From the NCBI GenBank assembly GCA_016718405.1, contig JADKDJ010000035.1, forward strand, positions 39,972 to 103,971: 64,000 nucleotides of DNA, read 5' to 3'. Each line of letters begins with the position of its first letter. Positions within the stretch are counted from its first letter, which is position 1. Below are positions 33,260-48,760 of this stretch, piece after piece. The stretch is from Candidatus Rhodoferax odensensis. GTDB lineage: Bacteria > Pseudomonadota > Gammaproteobacteria > Burkholderiales > Burkholderiaceae_C. Position numbers and translations under genes: made by a program. The notes beneath the pieces are model-generated. The model had not been told where the DNA came from. It saw nothing but the letters and a program-made list of their open reading frames with translations, and ran no database searches.

Positions 33260-34770
33260 GCGCCGCGCCGGGCCGCCCCAAGCAAGCTCGCACCGCGGCC
33301 CGTAAGGGCGAAGCTACCCCCGCGACCACGGTAAGACTGGCGGACGCCAGGCTGGCTGCGCCGACAGCGACCAGCGATTCAGCGCACCCGCGCAAATGGG
33401 TGGCGCCGGCCCTGGTGGTGGTGGCCCTGCTGGTCTGGCTGGCGGCGCTGGCGCTTTTCATCACGACGCCGCTCAGCGAATTGCCGCGCTACTTCCTGCA
33501 ACGCTATTTCGTGCTGGATGCCACCTCGCTGCTGTTTGTGTTGCTGATCAACACGGTGTTTCTGGGCATTGCGGTCTATCTGTATTCCCGTGAACGATCG
33601 TCGCGCCTGCTGGCGCAGGACATATTGCCGCGTGCCCTGTTGTCGCTGATGTTCATGCTGATCATGAATCTGGGCGTGTTGTCCAACAACCTGGTGGTGC
33701 TGTGGGCCCTGATCGAGGCCAGCACGCTGTGCGCCGCGCCGCTGGTGGCGCGCGGGGATGCCGCCAACCCGCGACAAGTGGCCTGGCGCTACATGCTGTA
33801 CTCGGCGATGTCGCTGGCCATCACCTTCCTGGGTTTTCTGTGTCTGACCGAATCGGCTCACCTGCGTGGCGTCGCGATCAGTTTCCAGGTCGATCAATTG
33901 GGCTCGGCTCTGTCGGCCTCGCCCGATCGCTGGCAGCGGCTGGGCTTGGCGCTGATGCTGTTCGGGCTGGGCAGCAAGCTGGGACTGGCGCCGCTTTACG
34001 GCTGGCTGCCAGAAACCTACGAGACTGCGCCCACCAGCACCAGCGCCTTGTTGGCGGCGGTGCAGTTCAACATCAGCGTGGTCGCGGTGTTTCGGGTGCT
34101 GCAAGTGTTCCGGGGCCAGGACGGCGGCTTTGTGTCGCAAGAGCTGCTGGTGATGGGCTGCCTGTCCCTGATCGTGGCCGCCATTCAGGTCATGGCGGCG
34201 CGCAATTACAAACGGCTGATCGCCTACGCCTGCGTCAGTTCATCCGGGGTGATCGCGATTGGCCTGTCGGTTGGCAAGGCCGCCACCTACGGGGTGGTGC
34301 TGTATGTGGTCAGCAACGCGTTTGTCAAGGCACTGCTGTTTCTGTCGGCGGGCCGCCTGCGCTCGGTCTACGGCACCAACCAGACCGCCGCGCTGACCGG
34401 TGTGATCAAGGTGCTGCCCTTCTCTGGATTGCTGTTCGCGGTGGGTATCTTCGCCCTGCTGGGCTTTCCGCCATTTGCCAGCTTTCTGGCCGAAATGCTG
34501 ATCCTCTCGGGCATTGTGCAGGCTGGCAACCTGATGGCCTTTGCCCTGTTGTGCAGCATGCTGACCATCATCTTCGTGGCCACCGGTCGCACCGTGTTCC
34601 CGATGCTGTGGGGCGCCAGCGAGCAACCCCGCGCGCCGCATCAGGAGTCGATCCTGACCATCCTGCCCAAGCTTGGATTTGTTGGCGTATTGGTGATGCT
34701 GGGCGCCTACACGCCAGAGCGAGTGAGTCGCCTGCTGGTCGTGGTGGCCGAGTCGATCGGGGGGCGATGA
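33256..34770 (+). CDS. module 1: NuoN/NuoM / HyfF-like antiporter subunit
   Basis: 504-aa ORF with an ATGA overlap at 33256. It has the sequence LGLAPLYGWLPETYETAPTSTSALLAAV. The Ala/Arg-rich N-terminal 45 aa make the start uncertain. Confidence 0.82.
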   Translation: MSAAPGRPKQARTAARKGEATPATTVRLADARLAAPTATSDSAHPRKWVAPALVVVALLVWLAALALFITTPLSELPRYFLQRYFVLDATSLLFVLLINTVFLGIAVYLYSRERSSRLLAQDILPRALLSLMFMLIMNLGVLSNNLVVLWALIEASTLCAAPLVARGDAANPRQVAWRYMLYSAMSLAITFLGFLCLTESAHLRGVAISFQVDQLGSALSASPDRWQRLGLALMLFGLGSKLGLAPLYGWLPETYETAPTSTSALLAAVQFNISVVAVFRVLQVFRGQDGGFVSQELLVMGCLSLIVAAIQVMAARNYKRLIAYACVSSSGVIAIGLSVGKAATYGVVLYVVSNAFVKALLFLSAGRLRSVYGTNQTAALTGVIKVLPFSGLLFAVGIFALLGFPPFASFLAEMLILSGIVQAGNLMAFALLCSMLTIIFVATGRTVFPMLWGASEQPRAPHQESILTILPKLGFVGVLVMLGAYTPERVSRLLVVVAESIGGR

Positions 34771-36251
34771 TGGAGATACGCGAGCCCGTCCTGGTGCTGC
34801 CCCTGCGCGAACTTGCCGTGCTGGATATGCCAGCGCTGGCGCAACGCTGCGCCGAACAATTGCAAGCGGGTGCACGGCTGGTGACCCTTTTTGGTCGGCC
34901 CGACGCCGAGGCGAGTTGGGTCGCCACTGCCATCCTGCAAGGCCCGGACGGTGAATTGACTGCCCTGCGGGCCGAGTTCCAGAGCGGTACAAGCTACCCC
35001 GGGCTGACACCACGCTTTGCGCAGGCCCAGATCCTTGAACGCGAGTTGTGGGAGCAAACCGGTATCACGCCACTTGGTCACCCCTGGCTCAAGCCGGTGC
35101 GGTTTGAGGGCACACGCCAGCAGCAGATGGCGGACTACCCCTTCTTCAAGGTGCGTGGGCAGGAGGTGCATGAGGTGGGCGTGGGCCCGATTCACGCCAG
35201 CGTGATCGAGCCGGGGCACTTTCGCTTCATGTGCCTGGGCGAGCGGGTCTACCACCTTGAAATCCAGCTGGGCTACCAGCATCGCGGCATCGAGCCGATG
35301 CTGCTACGACGCGCACCCCTGACCTTGGCCAGCACGGTGGAGTCCATCTGCGGTGACGCCTGCATCGCCTACGCGTGGGCGTATTGCTCAGCCATGGAAG
35401 CACTCGGCGATACCCCGATCCCGGCCGAGATCGAGCTGATACGCGGTGTGGCATTGGAACTCGAACGTATTGCCATGCACTTGGCCGCCCTGGGCGGCTT
35501 GGCCACCGACATTGCCTTCCTGCAAGGCGGTGCCAGCTATGGCCGCCTGCGCACCGCCATCATCAACGCCAGCATGCGGGTGTGTGGCAGCCGCTTCGGG
35601 CGTGGCTGGTTGTGCCCGGGCGGAGTCCGATTTGGCTTGACCGATGCACTGCGCCAGGATCTGGCTCAGACGCTGGGCGCGTTTGCCAGGGACATTGCCG
35701 AGGTCAACGCGTTGATGTTAGGTGCGCGCAGCGTGCAGGCGCGCTTTCAGGGTATCGGCAAGGTCAGCACGCAGGCTGCGCGGGACCTGGGCCTGGTAGG
35801 TCTGGTGGCGCGCGCCAGCGGCGTGGCACTCGATACGCGCAGCAGCCTGCCGGGCTTGCTGCACCAGCACTGGCCAATCTCCAGCCTGACCGAAAGCACG
35901 GGCGATTGCTGGGCGCGCATGCAACTGCGCATGCGCGAGATCGACACGTCCCTGACCTGGCTTGTGAACGTGCTTGGCGACCACGCGTTGGACCTGCGCG
36001 CCCAGCCGGTGCGGGTCAACCCGGCGCTGCGCCCAGACGCCTTGTGCGTGTCCCTGCGAGAGGGCACGCGCGGACCTGTGTTGCACGTGGCGGAAACCAC
36101 TGGGCAAGGCACGCTGCGGCACTACAAGGTGCAAGACCCGTCCCTGCAGAACTGGTTTGGCCTGGCGCTCGCGGTACGCGACAACGGCATTTCGGACTTT
36201 CCCATCTGCAACAAGAGCTTTGACCTCTCCTATTGCGGCAACGACCTGTAG
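34767..36251 (+). CDS. module 1: NuoC-NuoD/HycE-like large subunit without canonical NiFe CxxC pairs
   Basis: ATG 34767 (ATGA overlap) lies in the frame of ORF 33702..36251. It has GVGPIHASVIEPGHFRF and HLEIQLGYQHRGIE. At the L1 position it has ESICGDACIAY, and its C-terminus is FPICNKSFDLSYCGNDL. Confidence 0.85.
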   Translation: MMEIREPVLVLPLRELAVLDMPALAQRCAEQLQAGARLVTLFGRPDAEASWVATAILQGPDGELTALRAEFQSGTSYPGLTPRFAQAQILERELWEQTGITPLGHPWLKPVRFEGTRQQQMADYPFFKVRGQEVHEVGVGPIHASVIEPGHFRFMCLGERVYHLEIQLGYQHRGIEPMLLRRAPLTLASTVESICGDACIAYAWAYCSAMEALGDTPIPAEIELIRGVALELERIAMHLAALGGLATDIAFLQGGASYGRLRTAIINASMRVCGSRFGRGWLCPGGVRFGLTDALRQDLAQTLGAFARDIAEVNALMLGARSVQARFQGIGKVSTQAARDLGLVGLVARASGVALDTRSSLPGLLHQHWPISSLTESTGDCWARMQLRMREIDTSLTWLVNVLGDHALDLRAQPVRVNPALRPDALCVSLREGTRGPVLHVAETTGQGTLRHYKVQDPSLQNWFGLALAVRDNGISDFPICNKSFDLSYCGNDL

Positions 36252-36259
36252 GCCCTCCC

Positions 36260-37009
36260 ATGTTGAAATCCATCGCTGTACGGGTGTCACAAGGCACGCA
36301 ATACATCCCGGACCCGCGCAAGGCAAATCCGGTCGGGTTTCGCGGCAAACCCGTCATCGCAGATGCCGCGTGCGAGCCCTCTTGCGAGGCCTGCGTGACG
36401 ACCTGTCCGACCGGTGCCATCACACTCGATCCGGTTCAGATCGATCTGGGTCGCTGCACACTTTGCATGGATTGCGAGAGCGTCTGCCCCAGCGCCAAGT
36501 TCTCGTTCTCCAATGACTTCAGGCTGGCCAGCGCCGAGCGGGCCGGTCTGGTGCTGACGGCGACGCGACGCAACGTGGACCCGGTCGAAGTGTCGCAGGC
36601 GCTGCGCCAGCGCTTTGGCCGCTCGCTCAAATTACGCTCGGTGTCGGCCGGTGGCTGCAATGGCTGCGAGCTGGAGGTGAATGCCCTGGCCAACGTCAAC
36701 TTCGACATCGGCCGCTACGGCATCGACATCGTTGCCTCGCCACGGCACGCCGACGGTCTCGTGCTAACCGGCCCGATCACCCGCAACATGACCGAAGCCT
36801 TGCAGATTTGCTGGGATGCGATGCCCGCGCCCAAGCTGGTGATTGCGGTGGGCGCCTGCGCCATATCGGGCGGCCTGTTTGCGCACCAGGATGCCGTGGA
36901 TCGAGGCTTCCTGGAGCGCGTCAAACCAAGCTTGTATGTGCCCGGCTGCCCGCCCCATCCGCTGACCTTTGTCTGCGGGGTGCTTGATCTGCTGGGTATT
37001 CCGAGCTGA
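36260..37009 (+). CDS. module 1: fusion of 2x[4Fe-4S] ferredoxin (HycF/NuoI-like) with NuoB/HycG-like small subunit
   Basis: ATG 36260. The ferredoxin part has CEPSCEACVTTCP and CTLCMDCESVCP. The NuoB-like part has GGCNGCELE, GACAISGG and PGCPP. Confidence 0.85.
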   Translation: MLKSIAVRVSQGTQYIPDPRKANPVGFRGKPVIADAACEPSCEACVTTCPTGAITLDPVQIDLGRCTLCMDCESVCPSAKFSFSNDFRLASAERAGLVLTATRRNVDPVEVSQALRQRFGRSLKLRSVSAGGCNGCELEVNALANVNFDIGRYGIDIVASPRHADGLVLTGPITRNMTEALQICWDAMPAPKLVIAVGACAISGGLFAHQDAVDRGFLERVKPSLYVPGCPPHPLTFVCGVLDLLGIPS

Positions 37010-37056: not shown

Positions 37057-38232
37057 TCAAGGCGCCAAGGGGTTGGAGAAACGACGCCAACTTATGCAGC
37101 GCACCCCTTCACGGGTATAGCTCTCATTGCCACCGTGAATGAGCCAGGGCTCGGGCGTTGGCTCAGTGACAAAGCGGGCGGCGCGTTGCCCGGCGCGCAC
37201 CAGGTCCGGCGTGATGGTCTGGCCGGACTTGATCTCGACACACTGCAAGCCCTGCGCGCTCTCGAACACCAGGTCAGCCTCCAGCCCGTTGTTGTCGCGC
37301 CAGAAGTAGAGGTCCGCCGGCAAGCCGCGATTGTCTCGGAACTTGCGAAACTCGCCGACAACCCAGGTTTCAAACAAGGCGCCGCGCATCGGGTGCAGCG
37401 CCAGCAGTGGCTCCTCGCGGATGCCCAACAGCCACGCGGCCAAACCGGTGTCGGTGAAATACAGTTTGGGTGTCTTGACCAGGCGCTTGCCAAAATTGCG
37501 GTGATACGGCTGCAGCAGGAACACCAGTTCGCTCGACTGCAGCACCGACAGCCAATGGCGCGCCGTGGTGTGACTCACGCCGGCGTCCGTGGCAAGCGAC
37601 ACCAGATTGAGCAGCGTGCCGGTTCGGGCGGCGCACAGGCGCACGAACCGCGCAAAGGTGGACAAATCCTGGACGCGCAGCAGTTGGCGCACGTCGCGTT
37701 CGACATAGGTCGCCACATAGCTGGAGAACCAGTCCATTGCCTCGATCGGTGAACGCTCCACCTGCCACAGGCTGGGGTACGAACCCAGCCACAAATGGGT
37801 ATACAAGTCTCGCTGCACTGCCGGGCCTAACTCGGACATCGCCAATGGCAGCAGCCTGGTGAGCCCAACGCGACCAGCCAGGGATTGCGTGACACCGGCC
37901 ATCAGGCCAAACTGTTGCGACCCGCTCAGGACGAAGCGCCCTGGCCTGCGGTCGGCATCGACCATGCCTTGCAGTAGAGAAAACAGCTCGGGCCAGCGCT
38001 GCGCCTCGTCGAAGATGGCGCCCTGGTCGAAGCGCTGCAGAAACCCCCTCGGATCGGTCTGCGCAAAACCAAGTTCCACCGGGTCTTCCAGCGACACATA
38101 GGTCTTGTCGGCAAAGACTTCGCGCACCAGCGTGGTCTTGCCGGACTGTCGCGGCCCCGTCACCGCCAAGACGGGGAACTGGCGCGCCAGGCGCAGCAAG
38201 GTAGCAGATAAGTCTCTGGGGAAGATATTCAT
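37057..38232 (-). CDS. AAA-family ATPase with DUF4143-type C-terminal domain
   Basis: ORF 37057..38256. The likely start is ATG 38232 (MNIFPRDLSATLLRLARQFPVLAVTGPRQSGKTTL). It has Walker A and Walker B-like (IFDEAQ) motifs. The upstream region is very AT-rich. Confidence 0.85.
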   Translation of the reverse strand: MNIFPRDLSATLLRLARQFPVLAVTGPRQSGKTTLVREVFADKTYVSLEDPVELGFAQTDPRGFLQRFDQGAIFDEAQRWPELFSLLQGMVDADRRPGRFVLSGSQQFGLMAGVTQSLAGRVGLTRLLPLAMSELGPAVQRDLYTHLWLGSYPSLWQVERSPIEAMDWFSSYVATYVERDVRQLLRVQDLSTFARFVRLCAARTGTLLNLVSLATDAGVSHTTARHWLSVLQSSELVFLLQPYHRNFGKRLVKTPKLYFTDTGLAAWLLGIREEPLLALHPMRGALFETWVVGEFRKFRDNRGLPADLYFWRDNNGLEADLVFESAQGLQCVEIKSGQTITPDLVRAGQRAARFVTEPTPEPWLIHGGNESYTREGVRCISWRRFSNPLAP

Positions 38233-38327
38233 ACAATTTGCATATATAAAATTCATATTGTATAGAAATCAGTCTTGAAGTCCATCCCGAGTGGCGGCTT
38301 CAAGTCGGGGCGGTCGCGCCCGCTGGT

Positions 38328-38840
38328 TCAGGCTCGCCGGCGCACCGCGCTCAGGATGCCGCGCAGAATCTCCAGCGGTGGCGGCGGGCAGCCCGACACC
38401 AGCACATCCACCGGGATCACATTGGCCACCGCGCCACAACTGGCGTAACTCTCGCCAAAAATGCCGCCATCACAACCACAGTCGCCCACCGCCACCACCA
38501 GCTTGGGAGAAGGCGTGGCGTCATAGGTACGCTTGAGCGCTTCTTCCATGTGGCGCGACACCGGCCCGGTCACCAGCAGCAGATCGGCATGGCGCGGACT
38601 GGCGACAAACTTGAGGCCCAGCCCCTCAATGTTGTAGTAGGGATTGGTCAACGCGTGAATCTCCAGTTCACAGCCATTGCAGGAGCCGGCATCCACCATG
38701 CGAATCGCCAGCGCCTGGCCCAGAATCTCCAACAATTCGCGCCCGATCGCCTGCGCCTGCGCGCGCTGGTTCTCGTCGAATGCGGGCGGCGCCTCCGTGC
38801 GAATTCCGTTGACCGCGATCTGGCGAATGATCTTCCACAT
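38328..38840 (-). CDS. module 2: NuoB/HycG-like small subunit
   Basis: ATG 38840 (ATGA overlap with the large-subunit stop) lies within ORF 38328..38948. It has GSCNGCELE, GDCGCDGG and SGCPPPP. Confidence 0.85.
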   Translation of the reverse strand: MWKIIRQIAVNGIRTEAPPAFDENQRAQAQAIGRELLEILGQALAIRMVDAGSCNGCELEIHALTNPYYNIEGLGLKFVASPRHADLLLVTGPVSRHMEEALKRTYDATPSPKLVVAVGDCGCDGGIFGESYASCGAVANVIPVDVLVSGCPPPPLEILRGILSAVRRRA

Positions 38841-40372
38841 CAGAGGTCGTGCCCCGAGTAACTGAGGTTGAAGGACTTGTTGATCAACGGAAAGTCCGGC
38901 ACGATGTTGCCAATCACCGCGTGCTCCAGCACCGGCCAGTTTTGCCACGAGGGGTCATGGCAGTGGCAGCGGCGGATTCGTTGTGGCTGCCCTGCATCGG
39001 CCAGCTCCAGCGCCACCAACACTTCGCCGCGCCAGCCCTCGACCCAACCGGCACCAAACGCGGCTGGCGGTGGCAGCGGCACAGCAGTGTGAACCGGCCC
39101 GGGCGTCAAACTCTCCAGAAGCGTCTGCATCAGGCGCAAGGACTCGGCCAACTCCTCGAACCGGACGATCACGCGGGCCGCCACATCACCGCCACGGTGC
39201 GTCACCATACGCGCCTGCAAGCGGTCATAAGGCGGCACGGCATGGTCGCAGCGCACGTCCCAAGCTTGCCCGCTGGCGCGCCCGGCCAGGCCGGTCAGAC
39301 CAAGTTGCGCCGCCAGGCCCGGCATGACCCGCCCGGTTGTCAAAAAGCGGTCCTGCAGACCCGCGTGCTCGTCGTAGATGACCCTCAGCGCCTGCACCTC
39401 GCGAGCGATGGCTTCGCCATGCTGGCGCAGTTGATCGACCTGCGCCGTATCAATATCGCTAGCCACGCCACCTGGGACGATGCGGTCCATCATCAGACGG
39501 TGCCCAAACACCTGGCCCGACCGGCGCAGCCAGTCTTCGCGCAGGCGCGAGAACTGCGCCAGACCAAAAGCGAATGCGGCGTCGTTGCCGAGGGCACCGA
39601 GGTCAGCCAGGTGGGCTGCCACGCGTTCGCGCTCCAACATCAGCGCGCGCAGCTCCGCCGCGCGGGCCGGCACCTCGACACCGCAGGCGGACTCCAGCGC
39701 CATGCAATAGGCCCAGGCATAGGCCACGGTGGAGTCGCCCGACACACGGCCCGCCAAACGGTGAGCCTGCAAGGGGTCGAGCTGCGTGAAGCGCCGCTCA
39801 ATCCCCTTGTGGGTGTAGCCCAGGTGTTGCTCCAGCCGCAGCACCTTCTCGCCCACCACCGAGAAGCGGAAATGCCCCGGCTCGATGATGCCCGCGTGCA
39901 CCGGACCCACCGCGATTTCATGCACGCCGTCGCCTTGCACCCGCACAAAGGGATAGCCACCGGGCGGCGTCCCCGCCGCCCAATTGCATGCCTCGTCAAG
40001 CAAGGGCGGCCGCGCGCCAAGCCACAAACCATGGTCGAGCCAAGGCCGACTGTCCAGGCTGGACGCGGCCTGCAGCCCATTTAGGTCCGCCAAGGCCCGC
40101 TGCATGCGGCTAGCGGCCGGAAATATGCCAGCCAGGTCGGGATAGACCCGTTCGGGGGGGCTAAGCACCAGCTCCAGCCAGAGCAAGCCTTCCAGCACGG
40201 CATAGGCCACCGATACCGCCACCCGATCCGCCGCGGTCACCCCCCACACCGCTACCAGTCGCCCGCCACCCTGGCGCACCGCCATGGCTGTGCTCAGCCA
40301 TTGGTCGGCGCTGACAAGGCCACGCCAGATTGGCGCCGCGCCGGGCAGACGTTGCAGGTCCAGGTCCATCAT
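38840..40372 (-). CDS. module 2: NuoC-NuoD/HycE-like large subunit with no cysteines at the NiFe-ligand positions
   Basis: ATG 40372 (ATGA overlap). It has AVGPVHAGIIEPGHFRF and LEQHLGYTHKGIE. At the L1 position it has GRVSGDSTVAY (39725..39745), and its C-terminus is FPLINKSFNLSYSGHDL. Confidence 0.85.
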   Translation of the reverse strand: MMDLDLQRLPGAAPIWRGLVSADQWLSTAMAVRQGGGRLVAVWGVTAADRVAVSVAYAVLEGLLWLELVLSPPERVYPDLAGIFPAASRMQRALADLNGLQAASSLDSRPWLDHGLWLGARPPLLDEACNWAAGTPPGGYPFVRVQGDGVHEIAVGPVHAGIIEPGHFRFSVVGEKVLRLEQHLGYTHKGIERRFTQLDPLQAHRLAGRVSGDSTVAYAWAYCMALESACGVEVPARAAELRALMLERERVAAHLADLGALGNDAAFAFGLAQFSRLREDWLRRSGQVFGHRLMMDRIVPGGVASDIDTAQVDQLRQHGEAIAREVQALRVIYDEHAGLQDRFLTTGRVMPGLAAQLGLTGLAGRASGQAWDVRCDHAVPPYDRLQARMVTHRGGDVAARVIVRFEELAESLRLMQTLLESLTPGPVHTAVPLPPPAAFGAGWVEGWRGEVLVALELADAGQPQRIRRCHCHDPSWQNWPVLEHAVIGNIVPDFPLINKSFNLSYSGHDL

Positions 40373-42270
40373 CGCCCGACGCCCCCCAACATGCCAGCGG
40401 CCTGAACGTACCATTGGTTCAAGTAAGGCGGAATGAACAGGCCCAGCACCAACCCCAGACCAAGATGAACGAACACCGGTAGCAAGGCCGGTGGATGCGC
40501 CAGCGGTTTGAGCGAGGTTTCGCCAAACACCATCGGCAACACGCGCACCAGCACCGAGGCAAAGGCCAGACCCAGCGCGAAGAACAGGAATGGCGCGGCC
40601 CAGGGCTGCTCGCGCATGGCGGTGGTCAAAATCAAAAACTCGCTGGCAAACACGCCAAAAGGCGGCATGCCCAGGATTGCCATGACGCCCAGCATCATTC
40701 CCCAGCCCACTCTCGGGTTGACCTTGATTAGACCGCGAATTTCACTCATCACCTGGGTCCCGGCCTTCTGCGCCGCATGCCCGACGGTGAAGAAGATGGC
40801 CGACTTGATCAACGAGTGCACCGTCATGTGCAACAGCCCCGCAAAGTTGGCCACCGGCCCGCCCATTCCAAAAGCAAACATGATCAGACCCATGTGTTCG
40901 ATCGACGAGTACGAAAACATGCGCTTGACGTCCTTCTGGCGCGACAGGAAAAAGGCCGCCACCACCAGCGACAGTAGGCCAAAACCCATCATCAATTGCC
41001 CAGCCAGTGGCCGCTGCAAGGCGCCATCGGTCAACACCTTGCAGCGCAGCAGCGCGTACATCGCCACATTGAGCAGCAGACCCGACAGCACGGCGGACAC
41101 CGGCGTAGGCCCTTCGGCATGCGCGTCGGGCAGCCAGCTGTGCAGCGGCACCATGCCGACCTTGGTGCCGTAGCCGATAAACAGGAAAGCAAACGCCAGC
41201 GTGATGATGTGCGGATCGAGCTGGGATTTGACCGCATCCAGATTCGTCCACAGCAGCGCGCCGCCTTCGGGGCCCACCACCTTTTCCGCCGCCATGTAAA
41301 GCAAAATGGTGCCGAACAGGGCCAGGGCGATGCCAACACCGCACAGAATGAAGTACTTCCAGGCCGCCTCCAGGCTGGCCGGTGTGCGGTAGACACTAAC
41401 CAGCAGCACGGTGGTGAGCGTCGCTGCCTCCATCGCGACCCACAGAATACCCAGGTTGTTCGTGGTCAGGCCCAGCAGCATGGTGCAACTGAACAACTGG
41501 TACATGCCGTGGTACAGGCGCATGCGCGGCGGAGTCATCTTGCCGTGGTCTTGCTCAACACGCATGTAGGGCCGCGAGAAAATGGCCGTGGTGAGGCCGA
41601 CAAACGCTGTCAAGGTGACCATGAAGACGTTCAGCGGGTCAATAAAGAGGCTGTCGAACTGCTCGCGAATCTGGAACATGAAGACGCCCCGAATCAGCAC
41701 ACCGACCAGCACGTCGAGCGCAACACCAAACTCCACAATCATTGGCATGCCATTGGTGACGGTGGTGGCCGCAAAAATCAAGCCGTTTTCCATCGACAAA
41801 AAGCCGATCACCTGCGGCACCGCCTTGGACCGGGTGATCATCATCAGGAAGGACAGCAGCACGCAGGCCAACGCGATGCCCAGCGAGCCACCGGCCATCG
41901 AACTGGACAAGCGAGAGATGGGCAGCGCCAGGCTGAACGAGAAGATCACCAGCCCAATCCCGACCAGCATGGTGGTTGGGATGTTGATCAGGGTCTCCAC
42001 ATCCCAGCGCACGTTCAATCGACGAACGACCACGTGCAGCAGCCACGGAATCAACATGACTTTGAGCACCAGCGTCAAGGCCGCCGACACGTAGAGTTCA
42101 TTCTGGTGCGTGACGTAGCCAAGCAGCACGGAGGCAATCACCAGCGCCAGGCCCTGCAGCATGAACAGGTTGATCAGCGACACAATGCGTCGCTGCGAGA
42201 TCATGGCGAAGGACAGCAACAGGATCACGGTGGCGCACAGGTTGATCAATTGCGGGATGTACTTCATCAC
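40369..42270 (-). CDS. module 2: fused HyfE-like + NuoN/HyfF-like membrane subunit
   Basis: 633-aa ORF. The N-terminal ~215 aa are HyfE-like (FLSMENGLIFAATT). The rest is antiporter-like (VPLHSWLPDAHAEGPTPVSAVLSGLLLNVA). A GTG/ATG start overlaps the upstream stop. Confidence 0.85.
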   Translation of the reverse strand: MMKYIPQLINLCATVILLLSFAMISQRRIVSLINLFMLQGLALVIASVLLGYVTHQNELYVSAALTLVLKVMLIPWLLHVVVRRLNVRWDVETLINIPTTMLVGIGLVIFSFSLALPISRLSSSMAGGSLGIALACVLLSFLMMITRSKAVPQVIGFLSMENGLIFAATTVTNGMPMIVEFGVALDVLVGVLIRGVFMFQIREQFDSLFIDPLNVFMVTLTAFVGLTTAIFSRPYMRVEQDHGKMTPPRMRLYHGMYQLFSCTMLLGLTTNNLGILWVAMEAATLTTVLLVSVYRTPASLEAAWKYFILCGVGIALALFGTILLYMAAEKVVGPEGGALLWTNLDAVKSQLDPHIITLAFAFLFIGYGTKVGMVPLHSWLPDAHAEGPTPVSAVLSGLLLNVAMYALLRCKVLTDGALQRPLAGQLMMGFGLLSLVVAAFFLSRQKDVKRMFSYSSIEHMGLIMFAFGMGGPVANFAGLLHMTVHSLIKSAIFFTVGHAAQKAGTQVMSEIRGLIKVNPRVGWGMMLGVMAILGMPPFGVFASEFLILTTAMREQPWAAPFLFFALGLAFASVLVRVLPMVFGETSLKPLAHPPALLPVFVHLGLGLVLGLFIPPYLNQWYVQAAGMLGGVGR

Positions 42271-43217
42271 CCCACCCCCAGCAAGATGTTCACCAGCAAG
42301 CCAATCACCGCCAGCAGGAACGCGGTAGCCAAAAACTCGGGCACGCGGAAGATCCGCATCTTGGCGCTGAAGGTTTCAACCAGCGCCAGCAACATGCCCC
42401 CAATGGCGAGCTTTCCTACCAGCGCCGGCAAGGCCATGATCAGCGCCAAGGGCGCATCCGCCTCGGCCACGCCCCACGGGAAAAACAGCGCCAGGCCGAT
42501 GCACGAGTAGGCAAATAGCTTGAGGCTGGCGGCCCACTCCAGCAACGCCAGATGGCGCCCGGAGTATTCCAGAATCAGCGCCTCGTGAATCATCGTGAGT
42601 TCCAGGTGCGTTTCCGGGTTGTCCACCGGGACACGAGCGTTTTCCGCCAACGACACCATGGTGAAGGCCACGCCCGCCACCAGCAGGCTGGGGTAAATTG
42701 CCAGCTCCCTGTGCGCAAGCGTCTCGACAATGGTGGTCAACGAGGTGGACTTTGAAATCATGGATGCGCAAAACAGCACCATCAGCAACGCGGGCTCCGC
42801 CAGAAACCCCACCAGCATGTCGCGGCGCGCGCCCAGGCCGCCAAAGGCGGTGCCGATGTCCATCGCCGCCAGGGAAGCAAAGACACGGGCCAGTGCAAAC
42901 AGACCGACCAGGGCAATCGCGTCCGCCGCGGGGGACAGCGGCAGGTCGGTCGATAGCGTGGGCACAATGGCGCACGCCAGCACCATGCAGCCAAAGCTGA
43001 TGTAGGGAACCATCCGAAACAGGGACGAAGCCTGCTCGGCCACCACCGATTCCTTGTGAAACAGCTTGCGCAATACCCGATAGGGCTGCAACAGGCCCGG
43101 CGCCGACTTGTTCTGCAAGCGGGCGCGCCACTGGTTGACCCAGCCCGTCAGCAGCGGTGCCAGCAGCAGCGCCGCCACAATCGCCATCAGTTGCGAGAAC
43201 AGGCCCAGAAGACTCAT
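42267..43217 (-). CDS. module 2: NuoH/HyfC(HycD)-like membrane subunit
   Basis: ATG 43217 (ATGA overlap) lies within ORF 42267..43358. It has ENARVPVDNPETHLELTMIHEALILEYSGRHLA. Confidence 0.85.
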   Translation of the reverse strand: MSLLGLFSQLMAIVAALLLAPLLTGWVNQWRARLQNKSAPGLLQPYRVLRKLFHKESVVAEQASSLFRMVPYISFGCMVLACAIVPTLSTDLPLSPAADAIALVGLFALARVFASLAAMDIGTAFGGLGARRDMLVGFLAEPALLMVLFCASMISKSTSLTTIVETLAHRELAIYPSLLVAGVAFTMVSLAENARVPVDNPETHLELTMIHEALILEYSGRHLALLEWAASLKLFAYSCIGLALFFPWGVAEADAPLALIMALPALVGKLAIGGMLLALVETFSAKMRIFRVPEFLATAFLLAVIGLLVNILLGVG

Positions 43218-45238
43218 TGCTGGACCACCAGCAAGACCACGATCAGGGTCACGAAGCTGTACAACAAATAGACCGCGATGCGGCCCCGCTGCAAGCGGCC
43301 AACCAGGCGCGACAGACGCTCGACAAAAGCCGCCACCGGCAGGTACAGCGCCCGCCACATCGGGTCCTCGACGGTGACGCGGTAAGCCGGGTCGGTATCG
43401 AAAGGGCTCGGCAACTCACGCGTCATGCGAAACATCGGCTCGAAGATCTGGCGTATCGGTTGGCCAAAGCCCTCCGCGCTATCCTGCATGCGGGGGGTCT
43501 GCAGCGCAAAGCCGCAATCCCAGGGCGGCGCGCGCCGCGTGCGCCCGTGGTAGAACCGGCGCACCAGAAAATAGGCCAGTGCGAAGCTGGCCAGCACACC
43601 CAACAGGAAAATGACGGGCGCGTAGCTGGCGCGCTCGGCATTCACCGGCACCAGCAACCAGTCGGCGGTCGTCAAGGATTGCGGCAGCGCGTCGGAAACC
43701 AGCAGGCGCGTGACCGGTCGAATCAAGGCAATGACCTGGTTAGGCAACAGCCCCAACACCACGCAACCGGCCGCCAGCCAGAGCATACCCACGCGTTCCC
43801 AGAACCCGGCGTCATGGGCTCGGGTCAGCTTCTCCTCGCGCGGCTGCCCCAGGAAGATGACCCCAAAGTACTTGACCATGGTGTAGCCCGACAGCGCCGC
43901 AATCAACGCGATCAGGGCCGCCACCACCGGTACCAGCATGTTCAAAAAAGAACTTGGCAAACCCGTGGTGAACAGAAAGCTCTGCAGCAGCAACCACTCC
44001 GCCACAAAACCGCCGAGCGGTGGCAAGCCGGCACAGGCCAAAGCGCCAATCAGCGTTGGCCAGGCGACCCAGGGCATGTAGCGGATCAGGCCTCCGAGCT
44101 TGCCCAGGCTGCGCTCGCCGGTGGCATGCAAAACCGAGCCGGTGCTGCAAAAAAGCAGGCTCTTGAACACACCGTGGCTGAGCGCATGGTAGAGCGACGC
44201 CGTCAGCGCCAAGGCCGCCGGACCGGTCATGCCGTAGGCCGAGAACAACAGGGCCAGCCCGAAGCCGGCACACATCAGCCCGATGTTCTCGATCGACGAA
44301 TAGGCCAGCAAACGTTTCATCTCGACCTGCACCGTGGAGAACACCACGCCGAACAGCGCAGTGGCCAGACCCAAGGTCATCAACAGCACGCCCCACCACC
44401 AAATGCGCGTCTGCAACAGGTCGAACGAGATGCGCAGCAAGCCATACAGGGCAATCTTCAGCATCACGCCACTCATCAGCGCAGAGAAAGGCGATGGCGC
44501 CGCCGGATGCGCCTCGGGCAGCCAAGCGTGCAAGGGCACAATGCCGGCCTTGGCACCGAAGCCGAACACCGCCAGCACAAAGGCGACCGAACCCCAGAAC
44601 GGCGACAGGTGCTGCGCACGCATGTTGGCAAAGGTGTAGTCGCCCGTGTTGGCCTGAAGCACCCCGAAGCACAGCAGGATGCCCAGCGCGCCAATGTGGG
44701 CCACCAGCATGTACAGGTAGGCCGCGTTGCGGATTTCGGGAATGCGGTGGTTCGCCATCACCAAGAAAAAAGAAGACAGCGCCATGGTCTCCCAGACGAC
44801 CATGAACACATACGCGTCATCGGCCATCACCACCATGGCGATGCTGGCCAGGAATACGTGGTACTCCAGGCAGATCAGGCCGGGTGGCGTGCCCTCGCCC
44901 TTGCGAAAGTAGCCCGCCGCAAACGCCGACACGCCCGTCGATACCCCGCCGATGAGCAGCAGGAAGAAGGCCGACAGGCCATCCAGACGCAGATGGAAAG
45001 GCAACTGCGGCAGGCCGATGGGCAGCACCGCAACCTCGGGCGTCCCCAGCGCCGCGTTGAAGGCCACCACGAGCAGGACCAGCGAGCACAACGCGCTCAG
45101 GGGGAACAGCACGGTGGCGATCAGCCGCAGCCGCCACAAAGCCACCACGCCGTCGCAGCCTATCAGCAACCAGGCCACAACCACCACCAACACCCAGTCG
45201 AGATGCACCCAGCCGGACGGCATCACCAAGGCGCTCAT
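43214..45238 (-). CDS. module 2: NuoL/HyfB(HycC)-like proton-conducting antiporter subunit
   Basis: 674-aa ORF. It has VPLHAWLPEAHPAAPSPFSALMSGVMLKIA and a HyfB-type C-terminal extension (PPWDCGF...). Confidence 0.88.
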   Translation of the reverse strand: MSALVMPSGWVHLDWVLVVVVAWLLIGCDGVVALWRLRLIATVLFPLSALCSLVLLVVAFNAALGTPEVAVLPIGLPQLPFHLRLDGLSAFFLLLIGGVSTGVSAFAAGYFRKGEGTPPGLICLEYHVFLASIAMVVMADDAYVFMVVWETMALSSFFLVMANHRIPEIRNAAYLYMLVAHIGALGILLCFGVLQANTGDYTFANMRAQHLSPFWGSVAFVLAVFGFGAKAGIVPLHAWLPEAHPAAPSPFSALMSGVMLKIALYGLLRISFDLLQTRIWWWGVLLMTLGLATALFGVVFSTVQVEMKRLLAYSSIENIGLMCAGFGLALLFSAYGMTGPAALALTASLYHALSHGVFKSLLFCSTGSVLHATGERSLGKLGGLIRYMPWVAWPTLIGALACAGLPPLGGFVAEWLLLQSFLFTTGLPSSFLNMLVPVVAALIALIAALSGYTMVKYFGVIFLGQPREEKLTRAHDAGFWERVGMLWLAAGCVVLGLLPNQVIALIRPVTRLLVSDALPQSLTTADWLLVPVNAERASYAPVIFLLGVLASFALAYFLVRRFYHGRTRRAPPWDCGFALQTPRMQDSAEGFGQPIRQIFEPMFRMTRELPSPFDTDPAYRVTVEDPMWRALYLPVAAFVERLSRLVGRLQRGRIAVYLLYSFVTLIVVLLVVQQ

Positions 45239-45360
45239 TCGCCTACACCCACAACAACGACCAGCACAGTCAACGACATGGCAACATCATGTTACAGGCC
45301 CCGCCTGGCGTCAATTGTCTCCACCATGCAGGTTGTGGCTACCGCGCACAACCGTTGGCG

Positions 45361-46155
45361 TCACCGTACCAGTTCGGGGGCAAACAGGCTCAGCCCGTCG
45401 CGCACTTGCTCCAGCGACAGACCGGCCAGCGCGACCCTGCGGGTCAGGCGCATCGGTCGAGCCGTCTGCAAGCGCGGCATCACCAACAAGACGCACAGCT
45501 CGGCCTCATCACCGCGCATCAGACGTTTGTGCGCAAGCACGCCTTGCCAAACCGAATCGTGTGGATCAACCTGCGGCAACAGGGTGACGCAGATGGTCCG
45601 CCTGTCGCAAAGAAAGACCGCGGCACTGAATGGCTCTGAAGTGGGGTCCACACTCAACTCGCCCCCGTCGAACAAGGGGTCCGCCTTTAGGATACGGTGC
45701 AGCATTTCCGCCAGGCTATAACGCATGGTCTCGGCGGGCAACAACCGCAGGGGTTCTGGGTGCCGCGTAAGCCCCCCCAAGCCAAGCAAGGCGTCGCAGC
45801 CGTCGTAACGCTCACAGGAGAGCCCCCAGTCCGGCTCCGTCTCACACGCTGCCATCACCTGTTTGGTGTCTTCGGCTACATAGCAAACAGCGTCGAGCCA
45901 CTCCATGGCTCGCTCAAAAACCCGGCTCATGTCGAATGCCTCGGGAAACTGCCGAATGAAGGGTAGCGGGTCGATCGCGCCGGCCGTGCTGTGCATCAGC
46001 GGTGATGCCAGATGCACCCGCTGCCCGTCGCGCCAAATCACGGCGCAAACATGCCCGTTTGTTGAGCCGGGCGGGCGGAATCTGACGAGCTTGAGCGCGC
46101 GCCGACCGGAAGGCGAGTCAGGCGTCTGGGTCGTTGCTCGCGGGCGCAGCGCCAT
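45361..46155 (-). CDS. hypothetical protein, no recognisable family; first gene upstream of module 2
   Basis: 264-aa ORF with coding-like composition, co-directional with its neighbours. It lies 19 nt after the OmpA-like gene and 122 nt before the HyfB-like gene. The start is uncertain. Confidence 0.55.
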   Translation of the reverse strand: MALRPRATTQTPDSPSGRRALKLVRFRPPGSTNGHVCAVIWRDGQRVHLASPLMHSTAGAIDPLPFIRQFPEAFDMSRVFERAMEWLDAVCYVAEDTKQVMAACETEPDWGLSCERYDGCDALLGLGGLTRHPEPLRLLPAETMRYSLAEMLHRILKADPLFDGGELSVDPTSEPFSAAVFLCDRRTICVTLLPQVDPHDSVWQGVLAHKRLMRGDEAELCVLLVMPRLQTARPMRLTRRVALAGLSLEQVRDGLSLFAPELVR

Positions 46156-46173
46156 CGGTTCCCCAGTGTCGCG

Positions 46174-46722
46174 TCAACGTGTCTTGTAGTTCAAATCAGC
46201 ACGGCGATTCTTGGACCAGGACTCTTCGTCGTGACCAAGCCCCACGGGCTTCTCCTTGCCAAAACTGATGGCTTCCATGCGCTTGTCGGACACTCCCAGC
46301 AACTTGAGTGACTGCAATGCCGCCTCGGCACGCTTTTGTCCCAACGCCAGGTTGTACTCGCGGCCGCCACGCTCATCGGCGTGGCCCTCCAGCCGCAGAT
46401 TGGCGGTCTGGTGACTGAGCATGTATTTGCCGTGATTGTCCAGAATGGCGGCATCCGACGCATGGACAACATAGCTGTCGAAGTCGAAGTGCACACTTCT
46501 TGCGGCCAATGGCGACTTCGGATCATCCAGGGGGTGAACCACCACTGCGGCCACGGTGGATTTGGCCGCTGGCTGCGTACCACCGGTCGCAGCACCAGCG
46601 CCGGAACCTGCTGCCGCCCCAGATGCGGAAGATGCGGTTGAGGACAACGGAGTCGGGCTGCTGCAACCCGCTGCTACCAATGCCAATGCGATGACGGCGC
46701 CAGCGAGGAATTTCGAATTCAT
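46174..46722 (-). CDS. OmpA-family (Pal-like) lipoprotein
   Basis: ORF 46174..46800. The start is set at ATG 46722, after AAAGGAAC. It has a lipobox (LVAAGCSS), a low-complexity linker and an OmpA C-terminal domain (LEGHADERGGREYNLALGQKRAEA). Confidence 0.88.
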   Translation of the reverse strand: MNSKFLAGAVIALALVAAGCSSPTPLSSTASSASGAAAGSGAGAATGGTQPAAKSTVAAVVVHPLDDPKSPLAARSVHFDFDSYVVHASDAAILDNHGKYMLSHQTANLRLEGHADERGGREYNLALGQKRAEAALQSLKLLGVSDKRMEAISFGKEKPVGLGHDEESWSKNRRADLNYKTR

Positions 46723-46819
46723 GATGGGTTCCTTTGAGATGTTACGGGAGTGCCCGCCCCTCTGATTTCCTTGGTGGGCGATCGCGATGCGAAGCTTCAT
46801 TTTTATTTACCTTGTGTTT

Positions 46820-46845
46820 AATTGCAATTGCAATTCAATTAACAT
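46820..46845 (+). promoter_or_regulatory. AT-rich (G)CAATT-repeat element, copy S1 (AATTGCAATTGCAATTCAATTAACAT)
   Basis: It matches copy S2 at 48735..48760 at 23 of 26 positions, in the same orientation. It contains the palindrome AATTGCAATT. It lies 98 nt upstream of the OmpA-like start. AT-rich similarity extends about 20 nt further 5'. Confidence 0.6.
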
Positions 46846-46903
46846 GCTCGGTGTTTTGTGATGTGACTTCGGGGGGCGCGCCGACCCCCGTGGCAGGCCA
46901 TTT

Positions 46904-47648: not shown

Positions 47649-47816
47649 GGGTTTGGAGTGATCACTCGTTGGGCACTATCGCGCAGGCGCAAGGCGCCAC
47701 CCATGTGACAGCCAGCACGACGGAGCCCGCCACACAGGGGCCGGGGCAAGGGCCGGCAAATATCACCCCAAGACACTTCGCAACCCAGCGTTGACTTGAC
47801 CGAATGGTCATGTCCA

Positions 47817-48554: not shown

Positions 48555-48734
48555 CGGCAAGAGGATCGCTTTATTGAAAGGTGCCACCCTGCGCTTGTTC
48601 CGGTTCAAGGCTCTCGCGGGAGGTCTCGTAAACAATAACAATGCCTTCGAAGAGTTGTGACACGGCGAATTCGCTCACGCACGACAGGAAGCGCATTTTT
48701 AGTGGCTTAGACACATTTTATTAACTTTTTAGTC

Positions 48735-48760
48735 AATTGCAATTACAATTTGATTAACAT
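48735..48760 (+). promoter_or_regulatory. AT-rich (G)CAATT-repeat element, copy S2 (AATTGCAATTACAATTTGATTAACAT), candidate RHH operator
   Basis: It ends 13 nt before the RHH gene ATG (48774), just before the CTGGAG ribosome-binding site, in the divergent intergenic region shared with the SpeE-like gene. Confidence 0.6.

Follow-up and report, generated by a model that had tools for sequence, protein, structure and literature searches.

An ordinary Hyq/Ehr gene cluster with a private hyqE–hyqF deletion in a Rhodoferax MAG

Introduction

A stretch of 64,000 nucleotides from Candidatus Rhodoferax odensensis (hereafter the window) carries an operon, module 2, whose products resemble parts of respiratory complex I and of hydrogenase-4. 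A sequence-only reading described it as a minimal five-gene respiratory-complex-like machine; the question is whether module 2 is a distinct reduced enzyme or a member of a known family. Module 2 is an ordinary copy of the widespread, already described hyfBCEFGI (Hyq, Ehr) cluster, derived from a Rhodoferax MAG. The joint best explanation is very probably this known cluster together with a private 221-bp deletion across E and F, as a lesion or an artefact.

Organization of module 2

The five genes of module 2 are all situated on the minus strand, with ATGA or TGATG overlaps at the junctions, and each subunit has profile and PDB matches.

43214..45238, minus strand: hyqB (hyfB-like), antiporter-type (NuoL-like) membrane subunit, 674 aa; GenBank MBK9238049.1
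42267..43217, minus strand: hyqC (hyfC), NuoH-like membrane subunit, 316 aa; Pfam PF00146; GenBank MBK9238048.1
40369..42270, minus strand: fused hyqE'-'hyqF open reading frame, 632/633 aa; NCBIfam HyfE and HyfF matches
41647..42267, minus strand: HyqE part of the fused frame, residues 1–207
40372..41646, minus strand: HyqF part of the fused frame, helix 3 onward
38840..40372, minus strand: hyqG, large subunit (NuoC::NuoD / HycE-like), 510 aa from MMDL; PF00346, PF00329, PF00374; GenBank MBK9238047.1
38328..38840, minus strand: hyqI, NuoB/HycG-like small subunit, 170 aa from MWKII; Pfam PF01058; GenBank MBK9238046.1

As read from these sequences, HyqB, HyqF, HyqE, HyqC, HyqG and HyqI constitute a six-subunit complex-I-like core, in which HyqB and HyqF are the two predicted antiporter-like proton-channel subunits. 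HyqB matches NCBIfam NF005086 'hydrogenase 4 subunit B' over its full length (911 bits) and possesses the family-invariant residues E150, K230, K359 and E414. HyqC starts at MSLLG, its gene overlapping hyqB by ATGA, and contains numerous invariant acidic residues. HyqE is a seven-helix HyfE-type subunit with invariant E160 and E179, and in HyqF, 33% of the columns reach 97% identity or more, E75, K164, K283 and E338 among them.

The 120-bp gap upstream of hyqB contains one weak promoter candidate.

45286..45314, minus strand: candidate sigma-70-like hexamers TTGACG-17-CATGAT

Sigma-70-like matches occur across the region at chance level, and a search for a NifA/sigma-54 signal at the module 2 locus found none.

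Spread of the family and its neighbour genes

The hyfBCEFGI family was recovered in at least 600 genome stretches, and 80 loci were retained. All of these, which come from Beta-, Gamma- and Alphaproteobacteria, Acidobacteria and Nitrospirae, share the order B-C-E-F-G-I; the minimal design is the standard architecture of the family and not special to this locus. The same six-gene cluster without CxxC motifs has been published (PMC2650096, PMC3357923, PMC2864759, PMC7735108, PMC10284858, PMC7894505), with Azorhizobium, Cupriavidus, Acidithiobacillus, Nitrospira and Geobacter among the described hosts. The lost Ni-Fe cysteines, the missing ferredoxin-type gene and the single-cluster NuoB-like subunit are family-defining traits and not new. 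Every gene of module 2 has a dN/dS of 0.085–0.15 against the sister MAG. Conservation is highest in the membrane subunits, with HyqF 53–89% identical across phyla versus 42–69% for HyqG.

Upstream of hyqB, five further genes are situated.

45361..46155, minus strand: hypothetical protein, 264-aa open reading frame, called by GenBank as 211 aa at 45364..45996 (MBK9238050.1)
46174..46800, minus strand: Pal-type OmpA-family lipoprotein; TIGR02802; MBK9238051.1
46907..47672, minus strand: another SpeE-like copy, which compared with the conspecific L087 is interrupted by one extra nucleotide near 47441
47820..48641, minus strand: SpeE-like gene (PF01564 / PRK04457), recurrent beside hyq clusters
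48774..48956, plus strand: RHH_9 ribbon-helix-helix gene; Pfam PF19839, E=5e-22

The 264-aa and OmpA-like genes had been suggested as possible conserved neighbours, but they accompany hyq in close relatives only, and the wide recurrence belongs to the RHH_9 and SpeE-like genes. Family and profile searches with the 264-aa protein gave no matches, and its homologues lie near hyq only in the loci L001, L008 and L087. The Pal-type gene, found near hyq in a few loci, is local synteny outside the system. The RHH_9 gene adjoins hyqB in at least 19 loci and is likely a regulator. The neighbour survey found no electron-donor gene as a conserved hyq neighbour.

The large subunit without Ni-Fe ligands

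HyqG aligns with E. coli HycE (PDB 7z0s_E) at E=6e-54, RVSGDSTVAY being paired with HycE RVCGICGFAH and SFNLSYSG with SLDPCYSC. From the alignment of both motifs, it follows that the L1 cysteines are replaced by Ser/Ser and the L2 cysteines by Ser/Gly.

39719..39751, minus strand: L1 relic GRVSGDSTVAY; Cys replaced by Ser211 and Ser214, around the family-invariant Gly212-Asp213
38843..38893, minus strand: L2 relic and HyqG C-terminus FPLINKSFNLSYSGHDL; Cys replaced by Ser504 and Gly507, without a C-terminal extension

The sequence-only reading had seen both relics correctly: its L1 interval, 39725..39745, falls inside 39751..39719, and FPLINKSFNLSYSGHDL, with Ser and Gly at the L2 positions, is the real C-terminus, in agreement with the HycE alignment. 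Its 'cysteine-free large subunit' is apt for the Ni-Fe ligands, all of which are gone, but not for the protein, which still has six cysteines (129, 223, 230, 375, 469 and 471 in the 510-aa numbering), none at a ligand position.

Across the family, the four ligand positions are occupied by Ser, Ala or Gly, and G212 and D213 are present in 80/80 sequences. No HyqG cysteine is conserved family-wide; one Nitrospirae member has no cysteine and another has one. In the Rhodopseudomonas and Bradyrhizobium loci, RVSGDSTVAY is accompanied by a CNKSFNC cysteine pair, the spacing of which agrees with Cys-491 and Cys-497 of A. caulinodans HyqG (PMC3357923). In a representative search, Ehr-type and true CxxC-type proteins both carry the DFPL.NKSF...Y..DL/R C-terminus. 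By alignment, the complex I quinone ligands are changed in HyqG, with Nqo4 His38 (T. thermophilus numbering) replaced by Ile163 and Tyr87 by Gly212. At dozens of positions, HyqG has polar residues that do not vary between phyla, and many of these are common to true Ni-Fe relatives.

A single iron-sulphur site

HyqI contains the motifs GSCNGCELE (38687..38661), GDCGCDGG (38486..38463) and GCPP (38393..38382), forming one [4Fe-4S] site with the ligands C54, C57, C121 and C151, conserved in 76/76, 76/76, 76/76 and 75/76 sequences, respectively. The motif CxxCxxCxxxC(P) was not found in any frame of 38000..49200. In the whole window, it occurs at two sites only: 36455, in the ferredoxin::NuoB fusion of module 1, and 19509, in a formate-dehydrogenase-like open reading frame. 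An in-frame ferredoxin motif within the operon was found in 0/80 loci. Accordingly, the earlier view of a complex-I-like machine without Ni-Fe ligands or a HycF/NuoI-like 2x[4Fe-4S] gene, in which the NuoB-like cluster is the sole Fe-S site, holds: the operon neither contains nor adjoins a ferredoxin-type gene, and all three motifs and four cysteines of HyqI are kept. It was also right that donor and acceptor cannot be deduced here, as the locus does not reveal the redox partners.

Possible function of the intact complex

Tentatively, the intact complex may be a reversible pmf-coupled redox pump, in which the NuoB-like subunit itself is the docking site of a soluble electron partner. A low-potential one-electron carrier (ferredoxin or flavodoxin) would dock on HyqI at the usual place of NuoI. 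The single cluster would relay electrons, in either direction, between this carrier and a membrane acceptor located where HyqG, HyqI and HyqC meet, and this redox chemistry would be reversibly coupled to proton movement via HyqC, HyqE, HyqF and HyqB. If so, aerobes, diazotrophs and lithoautotrophs could use the pmf to produce low-potential reductant. The loss of the complex I quinone ligands and the lack of a conserved electron-donor gene nearby both count against such a pump.

The same lack of a conserved electron-input subunit or partner gene, together with the highest conservation in the membrane subunits (HyqF over HyqG), would suit a non-redox Mrp-like cation/proton transporter with a vestigial peripheral arm and a structural or regulatory [4Fe-4S] cluster. 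We consider this rather unlikely: the Mrp-specific subunits MrpB, E, F and G are absent, and the invariance across phyla of the four cluster ligands and of the polar HyqG residues shared with Ni-Fe relatives points to a catalytic or coupling site that still works.

For A. caulinodans Hyq, the evidence is genetic, and its authors interpret the complex as an H2:quinone oxidoreductase, an 'endo-hydrogenase' that would activate H2 at an unconventional active site other than Ni-Fe; this reading counts against the pump mechanism. The operon belongs to the NifA regulon, its deletion alters diazotrophic growth as well as the uptake and evolution of H2 (PMC2650096, PMC3357923), and the window cluster belongs to the same family. 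Such an activity is nevertheless improbable. The ligand positions hold Ser, Ala or Gly, HyqG lacks any family-wide cysteine, down to the nearly cysteine-free Nitrospirae members, and the complex I quinone ligands are absent. Furthermore, the At. ferrooxidans protein falls among the non-hydrogenases in HydDB and was undetected in H2-grown cells (PMC7735108), and the H2 phenotypes could be indirect, e.g., through reductant supply to nitrogenase.

The E–F fusion is a deletion allele

The given sequence does contain a 633-aa HyfE–HyfF frame, as had been reported, whereas module 1 keeps hyfE (32606..33259) and hyfF (33256..34770) as separate genes. The NCBIfam HyfE model (NF008556) matches residues 6–203, roughly the N-terminal 205 aa, at E=1e-21, under its curated cutoff, and residues 198–630 match HyfF model positions 55–484 of 484 with 815 bits.

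41623..41667, minus strand: deletion junction between REQFDSL and FIDPLNVF, located by blastn against L005, L087 and L088 and by alignment to the Polaromonas E and F pair

The sequence spanning the junction is REQFDSLFIDPLN. About 221 bp kept by relatives are gone, comprising the 3' tail and stop codon of hyqE, the start of hyqF and HyqF helices 1–2. E and F are two genes in the 70/70 other assessable loci, with 215–425 nt and a stop codon at the junction point. By blastn, the deletion is not found in L087 (conspecific MAG, 98.6% identical), L088 (contig, 99.1%) or L005 (sister MAG, 91–93%). The fused E–F protein was not found in a collection of 15 billion proteins, and a degenerate junction search of the JGI metagenomes gave no matches. 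In GenBank, MBK9238046 to MBK9238049 of the Rhodoferax sp. MAG are I, G, C and B; the fused frame has no protein accession, and the numbering leaves no slot between hyqC and hyqG. The five-gene form is thus a 221-bp deletion private to one assembly.

Loss of helices 1–2 should, as predicted from sequence, invert the remainder of HyqF in the membrane. With the positive-inside rule as the sole basis for HyqE topology, and helices read by eye, 10 Lys/Arg of the HyqE loops lie inside versus 2 outside, 7 are located in the loop joining HyqF helices 3 and 4, and the linker of about 15 residues at the join has no transmembrane segment. An automatic hydropathy scan divided the helices differently, and a profile comparison of HyqE with NuoK was not significant. 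HyqE would end on the cytoplasmic side and helix 3 of HyqF needs a periplasmic start; therefore, the fused chain would be topologically frustrated.

Rather than a designed five-subunit enzyme, the fusion most likely represents either a recent lesion that abolished function or a mistake in the assembly. In the same assembly, another gene is disrupted by 1 nt and scattered indels exist relative to the conspecific. Counting against a lesion or artefact, the join leaves hyqE in frame with hyqF, and the conserved columns show no excess of substitutions in the window. N-terminal helix loss is also tolerated in some complex I relatives, e.g., metazoan ND2. A real functional innovation, as first proposed, with HyqE tethered to a 12-helix HyqF in a five-polypeptide complex, is highly improbable: the frame is open and coupled by ATGA/TGATG on both sides, both halves keep all family-invariant residues and dN/dS is low, but such a fusion is missing from all 70 other loci, from three assemblies 91–99% identical to the window, from the JGI junction search and from the GenBank protein calls, and it would reverse HyqF helix 3.

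Comparison with known systems

Azorhizobium caulinodans hyqRBCEFGI (AZC_4360-4355) and its alphaproteobacterial orthologues have six structural genes in the order of module 2, their large subunits being about 45–48% identical to that of the window. Likewise, the A. caulinodans HyqG is a NuoC::NuoD fusion without both CxxC motifs, and HyqI has four cysteines and one N2-type cluster (PMC2650096, PMC3357923). Both systems are without HyfA, HyfD and HyfH, and a small regulator gene is often situated upstream. They differ in that E and F are fused by deletion in the window assembly, and the alphaproteobacterial CNKSFNC is INKSFNL in the window HyqG.

The same six-gene 'incomplete hyf' cluster exists in C. 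metallidurans (Rmet_4666-71), C. necator (H16_A2196-2201), At. ferrooxidans and Nitrospira, as noted in genome papers (PMC2864759, PMC7735108, bioRxiv 10.1101/144600). Subunit by subunit, the window shares 68–82% identity with a Cupriavidus locus (L003) and with Polaromonas JS666 (L001). Unlike in the window, hyfE and hyfF are separate in the Cupriavidus, At. ferrooxidans and Nitrospira clusters. The Ehr (energy-converting or Ech-hydrogenase-related) complexes, e.g., of Geobacter sulfurreducens (GSU0739-45, likened by description), Nitrospira and Margulisbacteria, are group 4 hydrogenase relatives without Ni-Fe ligands, with NuoL-like, HyfE-like, large and small subunits, and are placed beside group 4f (PMC7894505, PMC10284858, PMC6349859).

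In E. coli, HycE of FHL-1 (PDB 7Z0S) is the best solved-structure match to HyqG, and HyfB, C, E, F, G and I of hydrogenase-4 are homologous to the module 2 subunits. Unlike HyqG, HycE and HyfG possess four Ni-Fe cysteines and end in an extension that is cleaved off. Ferredoxin subunits (HycB/HycF or HyfA/HyfH), HyfD and a partner formate dehydrogenase are further components of FHL and Hyf. With the core of respiratory complex I (NuoB, CD, H, J/K, N, L), Hyq shares the module plan, the N2-type cluster and antiporter-like subunits with a conserved Glu/Lys pattern, but module 2 lacks NuoI, NuoE, F, G, A and M, and its quinone ligands are replaced. The best solved matches to the HyqF part are MbsH (E=4e-32) and MbhH (E=3e-29) of Pyrococcus MBS and MBH (PDB 6U8Y, 6CFW). 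As a hydrogenase relative with changed chemistry, Pyrococcus MBS provides a precedent. Unlike Hyq, both MBH and MBS retain a two-cluster subunit resembling NuoI, along with many subunits of the Mrp type.

Organization and family assignment of module 2

Module 2 is composed of five translationally coupled ORFs on the minus strand, running from 45238 down to 38328, with an ATGA/TGATG overlap at each junction.

Genes of the hyq operon (module 2), from hyqB to hyqI
674 aa, minus strand: HyfB-like antiporter subunit, HyqB (NCBIfam HyfB, 911 bits)
316 aa, minus strand: NuoH/HyfC-like subunit, HyqC (Pfam/NCBIfam)
632/633 aa, minus strand: long ORF, fused HyqE-HyqF (NCBIfam HyfE and HyfF matches)
510 aa, minus strand: NuoC::NuoD/HycE-like large subunit, HyqG (Pfam/NCBIfam)
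170 aa, minus strand: NuoB/HycG-like small subunit, HyqI (Pfam/NCBIfam)

The gene order B-C-E-F-G-I and the tight coupling are those of the hyfBCEFGI/Hyq/Ehr operons, with E and F as one ORF in the window. Only two antiporter-like genes are detected by Pfam, and HyfD is absent. The proteins correspond to GenBank MBK9238046 to MBK9238049 from a Rhodoferax sp. MAG. The sigma-54/NifA-type promoter pattern TGGCAC-N5-TTGC gives 129 matches against 134 expected, with none in the gap upstream of hyqB; the counts of a sigma-70 and terminator scan are likewise at chance, with a single weak -35/-10 pair upstream of hyqB.

At E ≤ 1e-10, the databases contain more than 8000 relatives of HyqG. Those nearest to it (67–82% identical, from Polaromonas, Cupriavidus, Hydrogenophaga and other Burkholderiales) all possess RVSGDSTVAY and NKSFNLSYSG[HQ]DL. 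A scan of species-representative genomes matched at least 600 stretches; 80 loci from Beta-, Gamma- and Alphaproteobacteria, Acidobacteria and Nitrospirae were retained, and the order B-C-E-F-G-I is present in all 80. The same arrangement is documented in the hyqRBCEFGI 'endo-hydrogenase' of Azorhizobium caulinodans, described as a six-subunit core of complex I, with a HyqG free of both CxxC motifs and a HyqI containing four Cys (PMC2650096, PMC3357923). Furthermore, hyfBCEFGI is known in Cupriavidus metallidurans and C. necator (PMC2864759), in Nitrospira (bioRxiv 10.1101/144600) and in Acidithiobacillus ferrooxidans, where it is a non-hydrogenase according to HydDB and went undetected during growth on H2 (PMC7735108). 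The loci of Rhodopseudomonas and Bradyrhizobium contain a CNKSFNC Cys pair with a spacing that fits Cys-491/Cys-497 of A. caulinodans HyqG, which ties the family of the window to Hyq. A search of 1.84 billion representative proteins, followed by alignment, recovers the C-terminal frame DFPL.NKSF..Y...D[LR] (DFPL.NKSF..SY.G.DL in its longer form) in 65 Ehr-type and 10 true CxxC...CxxC proteins; being common to both types, this frame fits the published placement of Ehr complexes adjoining group 4f hydrogenases (PMC10284858, PMC6349859, PMC7894505). Module 2 is a further copy of this already published hyfBCEFGI/Hyq/Ehr family. The earlier proposal of a minimal five-gene machine stands only in part: the sequence features on which it was built are real, but the striking ones are published family traits and the fusion is a deletion allele or an assembly error.

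Large and small subunits

The best solved relative of HyqG is E. coli HycE (7z0s_E, E = 6e-54). In the alignment, RVCGICGFAH of HycE lies opposite RVSGDSTVAY of HyqG, and SLDPCYSC opposite SFNLSYSG; hence, all four Ni-Fe cysteines are replaced in HyqG, by Ser211 and Ser214 in L1 and by Ser504 and Gly507 in L2 (the two CxxC ligand motifs; numbering of the 510-aa protein). The L1 relic GRVSGDSTVAY (39751..39719) and the C-terminal end FPLINKSFNLSYSGHDL (38893..38843) are both found as they had been noticed from the sequence. The subunit had also been called 'cysteine-free', which is correct for the ligand positions but not literally, six Cys being situated elsewhere. Among the 80 HyqG sequences, Ser occupies the former L1 positions in 70–75, Ser and Gly occupy those of L2 in 72 and 77, respectively, and Gly212 and Asp213 are kept in every one. 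HyqG has no family-wide conserved Cys, and the protein of one Nitrospirae member is entirely devoid of them.

In HyqI, the motifs GSCNGCELE, GDCGCDGG and GCPP are all present, as previously claimed. The residues C54, C57, C121 and C151 are invariant in 75–76 of 76 sequences and constitute the predicted site for one N2-type [4Fe-4S] cluster, in agreement with the published description of HyqI (PMC3357923). The reported lack of a ferredoxin subunit also bears up for the HycB, HycF, HyfA and HyfH types: window 38000..49200 is free of CxxCxxCxxxC motifs in all frames, and an in-frame motif is absent from the hyq operon in the 75 loci scanned.

The fused HyqE-HyqF reading frame

Residues 198–630 of the long ORF match positions 55–484 only of the HyfF model (815 bits, NCBIfam), and residues 6–203 match HyfE with a score under the curated cutoff of that model. 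Compared with the Polaromonas HyqE and HyqF pair, the chain follows HyqE up to ...FQIREQFDSL and then directly enters HyqF at ...FIDPLNVF, missing the end of HyqE (the last ~10 residues and the stop codon) as well as the start codon and ~65 residues of HyqF (helices 1–2). The junction reads CGACAGCCTCTTTATTGACC in the DNA and REQFDSLFIDPLN in the peptide. E and F form one ORF in the window because of a 221-bp deletion, and the ~221 bp are present in three related assemblies, namely a sister MAG (L005, 91–93% identical), a conspecific MAG with an intact 487-aa HyqF (L087, 98.6% identical) and a short-read contig with a complete 218-aa HyqE ending in DIHNLEKLKED* (L088, 99.1% identical). The six-gene state, with separate E and F, is found in conspecifics of the window, and at the corresponding point 70 of 70 other assessable loci have 215–425 nt that include a stop codon in frame with hyqE. 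A degenerate pattern of the fusion junction has no match in 241 million JGI metagenome records, and the exact fused protein is absent from a collection of 15 billion proteins. The neighbours of the fused ORF in the protein collection carry consecutive GenBank accessions, leaving no number free for it; the submitter's pipeline therefore made no protein call for this ORF. The window assembly contains other small indels as well as a 1-nt insertion that breaks a SpeE-like gene intact in L087.

Two short-read contigs of ENA sample ERZ27280341, both 99.7% identical to the window, end at window 41951 (L089) and start at window 40620 (L006). These breaks flank the hyqE-hyqF junction and would fit allele heterogeneity or a local assembly difficulty.

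The positive-inside rule predicts seven helices for HyqE, running from an external N-terminus to an internal C-terminus, with 10 Lys/Arg in the inner loops and 2 in the outer ones. Helix 3 of HyqF is predicted to begin outside, and the loop after it contains 7 Lys/Arg. This topology was read manually from the sequences; the automatic hydropathy scan missed the Glu-containing helix. In the fused chain, the cytoplasmic end of HyqE is joined to helix 3 via ~15 residues without a transmembrane segment, which would invert HyqF. No solved-structure relative of the HyqE part was found by sequence or by profile. The hhalign comparison with an E. coli NuoK sequence is not significant (E = 0.29), and NuoK homology of HyqE is consequently not claimed.

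The deletion is private to the window assembly and most plausibly a lesion or an assembly artefact; if real, it is recent. The single ORF runs on across the junction, but with HyqF predicted to be inverted and hyqE and hyqF undeleted in the closest assemblies, a functional, tolerated natural variant is extremely unlikely. The fused subunit does not merit an entry of its own as a new architecture, and the result is a correction for the module 2 locus.

Conservation across the family

Conservation is highest in HyqF, where 33% of the columns reach at least 97% identity; these conserved columns include the Glu and Lys expected for proton channels, as do those of HyqB. HyqE retains two membrane Glu across the family. 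For every module 2 gene, dN/dS against L005 is 0.085–0.15, and no excess of changes at conserved columns is seen in the window copy. Decay of the operon, considered in the sequence-only reading, has consequently left no long-term sign in dN/dS or conserved columns, except for the deletion.

Frameshifted, uncalled genes occur in both MAGs: hyqB and hyqF in L005 (4822..6844, 8498..9913), and hyqB and hyqE in L087 (7858..10001, 10951..11611). Shared decay was considered and rejected; because the broken genes differ between the assemblies, the frameshifts are judged to be sequencing or assembly indel noise.

Neighbouring genes

Genes of the window in the surroundings of module 2
17227..20178, minus strand: NAD-type (FdsA-like) formate dehydrogenase alpha subunit with molybdopterin, 2Fe-2S and 4Fe-4S domains
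20105..21997, minus strand: fused NuoE::NuoF-like protein, adjoining the formate dehydrogenase alpha gene
29719..37009, plus strand: module 1
37057..38256, minus strand: AAA_14/DUF4143 ATPase gene
46907..47672, minus strand: second SpeE-like copy, disrupted by a 1-nt insertion near 47441
47820..48641, minus strand: SpeE-like (PF01564/PRK04457-like) gene, recurrent hyq neighbour
48774..48956, plus strand: RHH_9 gene

The 264-aa protein and the OmpA/Pal-like gene, suggested earlier as neighbours whose conservation should be checked, are shared with only a few close relatives. The RHH_9 gene adjoins hyqB in at least 19 loci, and SpeE-like PF01564 genes are located near hyq in 13–14 loci, Acidobacteria included. 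In the 98.6% identical L087, the second SpeE-like copy is an intact 247-aa ORF, and its break into two frames in the window suggests indel noise in the window assembly or a pseudogene. The SpeE-like genes have GLGGGS at the site of the GGGDG motif of spermidine synthase SpeE. SpeE-like and small RHH_9 genes recur beside hyq clusters across Proteobacteria and Acidobacteria (L001, L003, L008, L009, L016, L017, L024, L029, L035, L039, L054, L055, L060 and L066), and no mention of this link was found in the Hyq/Ehr literature examined.

No redox-partner gene is a conserved hyq neighbour among the loci examined. Formate dehydrogenase was rejected as a partner, since the FdsA-like and NuoE::F-like genes (17227..21997) lie near hyq in no other locus. 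A standalone acylphosphatase-like gene is situated downstream of hyqI in five loci (L033, L043, L065, L073 and L084), and a P-type-ATPase-like ORF upstream of hyqB in nine, mostly gammaproteobacterial (L032, L038, L044, L058, L059, L061, L063, L070 and L071). The AAA_14/DUF4143 gene lies between modules 1 and 2 in both the window and L087; it is missing from that site in L005 and is hence an insertion/deletion polymorphism.

Module 1 is a second Ehr-like cluster (especially 34767..36251 and 36233..37009). In its small subunit, a 2x[4Fe-4S] HycF-like domain is part of the same polypeptide, and in its large subunit the Cys are displaced to sites next to the canonical ligand positions (ICGDACIAY; DFPICNKSFDLSYCGNDL). 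Acidobacteria and Cloacimonadota contain relatives with ...SYCG.DL. Modules 1 and 2 also occur as a pair in Methylibium (L009), Aquabacterium (L016) and Rhodoferax (L005, L087).

Proposed function and comparison with known systems

Judged from its conserved residues, module 2 encodes a complex-I-like core with intact predicted proton-channel residues and one conserved putative [4Fe-4S] site, devoid of Ni-Fe ligands and of a NuoI-type subunit. We tentatively propose a reversible, proton-coupled mechanism with ferredoxin or flavodoxin as the electron partner, which is possible although far from assured. With no NuoI, the N2-type cluster would be close to the exposed face of HyqI, where direct electron exchange with a soluble ferredoxin or flavodoxin could take place. 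Reversible coupling between proton translocation and the chemistry at the HyqG/HyqI/HyqC interface would allow aerobes, diazotrophs and lithoautotrophs to make low-potential reductant from the proton-motive force. Such a mechanism would account for the nif-linked phenotypes of A. caulinodans without H2 catalysis.

A broader proposal, more speculative and rather improbable as a whole, is that Hyq/Ehr complexes, module 2 included, are neither hydrogenases nor complex-I-type quinone reductases and form a distinct single-cluster enzyme class coupled to the proton-motive force. The partner would dock directly on the NuoB-like subunit, the chemistry would take place at the invariant Gly-Asp/Ser pocket replacing Ni-Fe, and the recurrent SpeE-like transferase and RHH_9 would belong to the same physiological system.

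With at least 600 genome matches and more than 8000 protein clusters, Hyq/Ehr is a very common complex-I core with a single Fe-S cluster, present in aerobes, diazotrophs and lithoautotrophs, and to our knowledge the family has no solved structure. The conservation map offers handles for tractable hosts such as Cupriavidus necator and Polaromonas JS666: Gly212-Asp213, the four HyqI Cys, the intact proton-channel residues, the lack of a family-wide HyqG Cys, and the recurrent SpeE-like and RHH_9 neighbours.

Compared with known systems, a non-redox, Mrp-like transporter appears unlikely. Module 2 does match MrpA/D-like domains, but only these, and the MrpB, C, E, F and G that such an antiporter requires are missing; in addition, Mrp antiporters have no peripheral redox arm, whereas module 2 has a NuoB/NuoCD arm with conserved cluster ligands. 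A true unconventional hydrogenase is very unlikely. The ligand motifs of group 4 [NiFe]-hydrogenases such as Hyf, FHL, Ech and MBH (L1 RxCGxCxxxH, L2 DPCxxCxxR) are not found in HyqG, nor is the NuoI/HycF-like 2x[4Fe-4S] subunit that connects proximal cluster and donor in that group found in module 2. Compared with complex I, the hyq operon lacks the NADH-input module NuoEFG together with NuoI. Moreover, in the 2fug_4 alignment, Ile163 and Gly212 of HyqG lie opposite His38 and Tyr87 of Nqo4, the quinone head-group ligands of the NuoD-like subunit of complex I, and these ligands are thus not conserved in HyqG.
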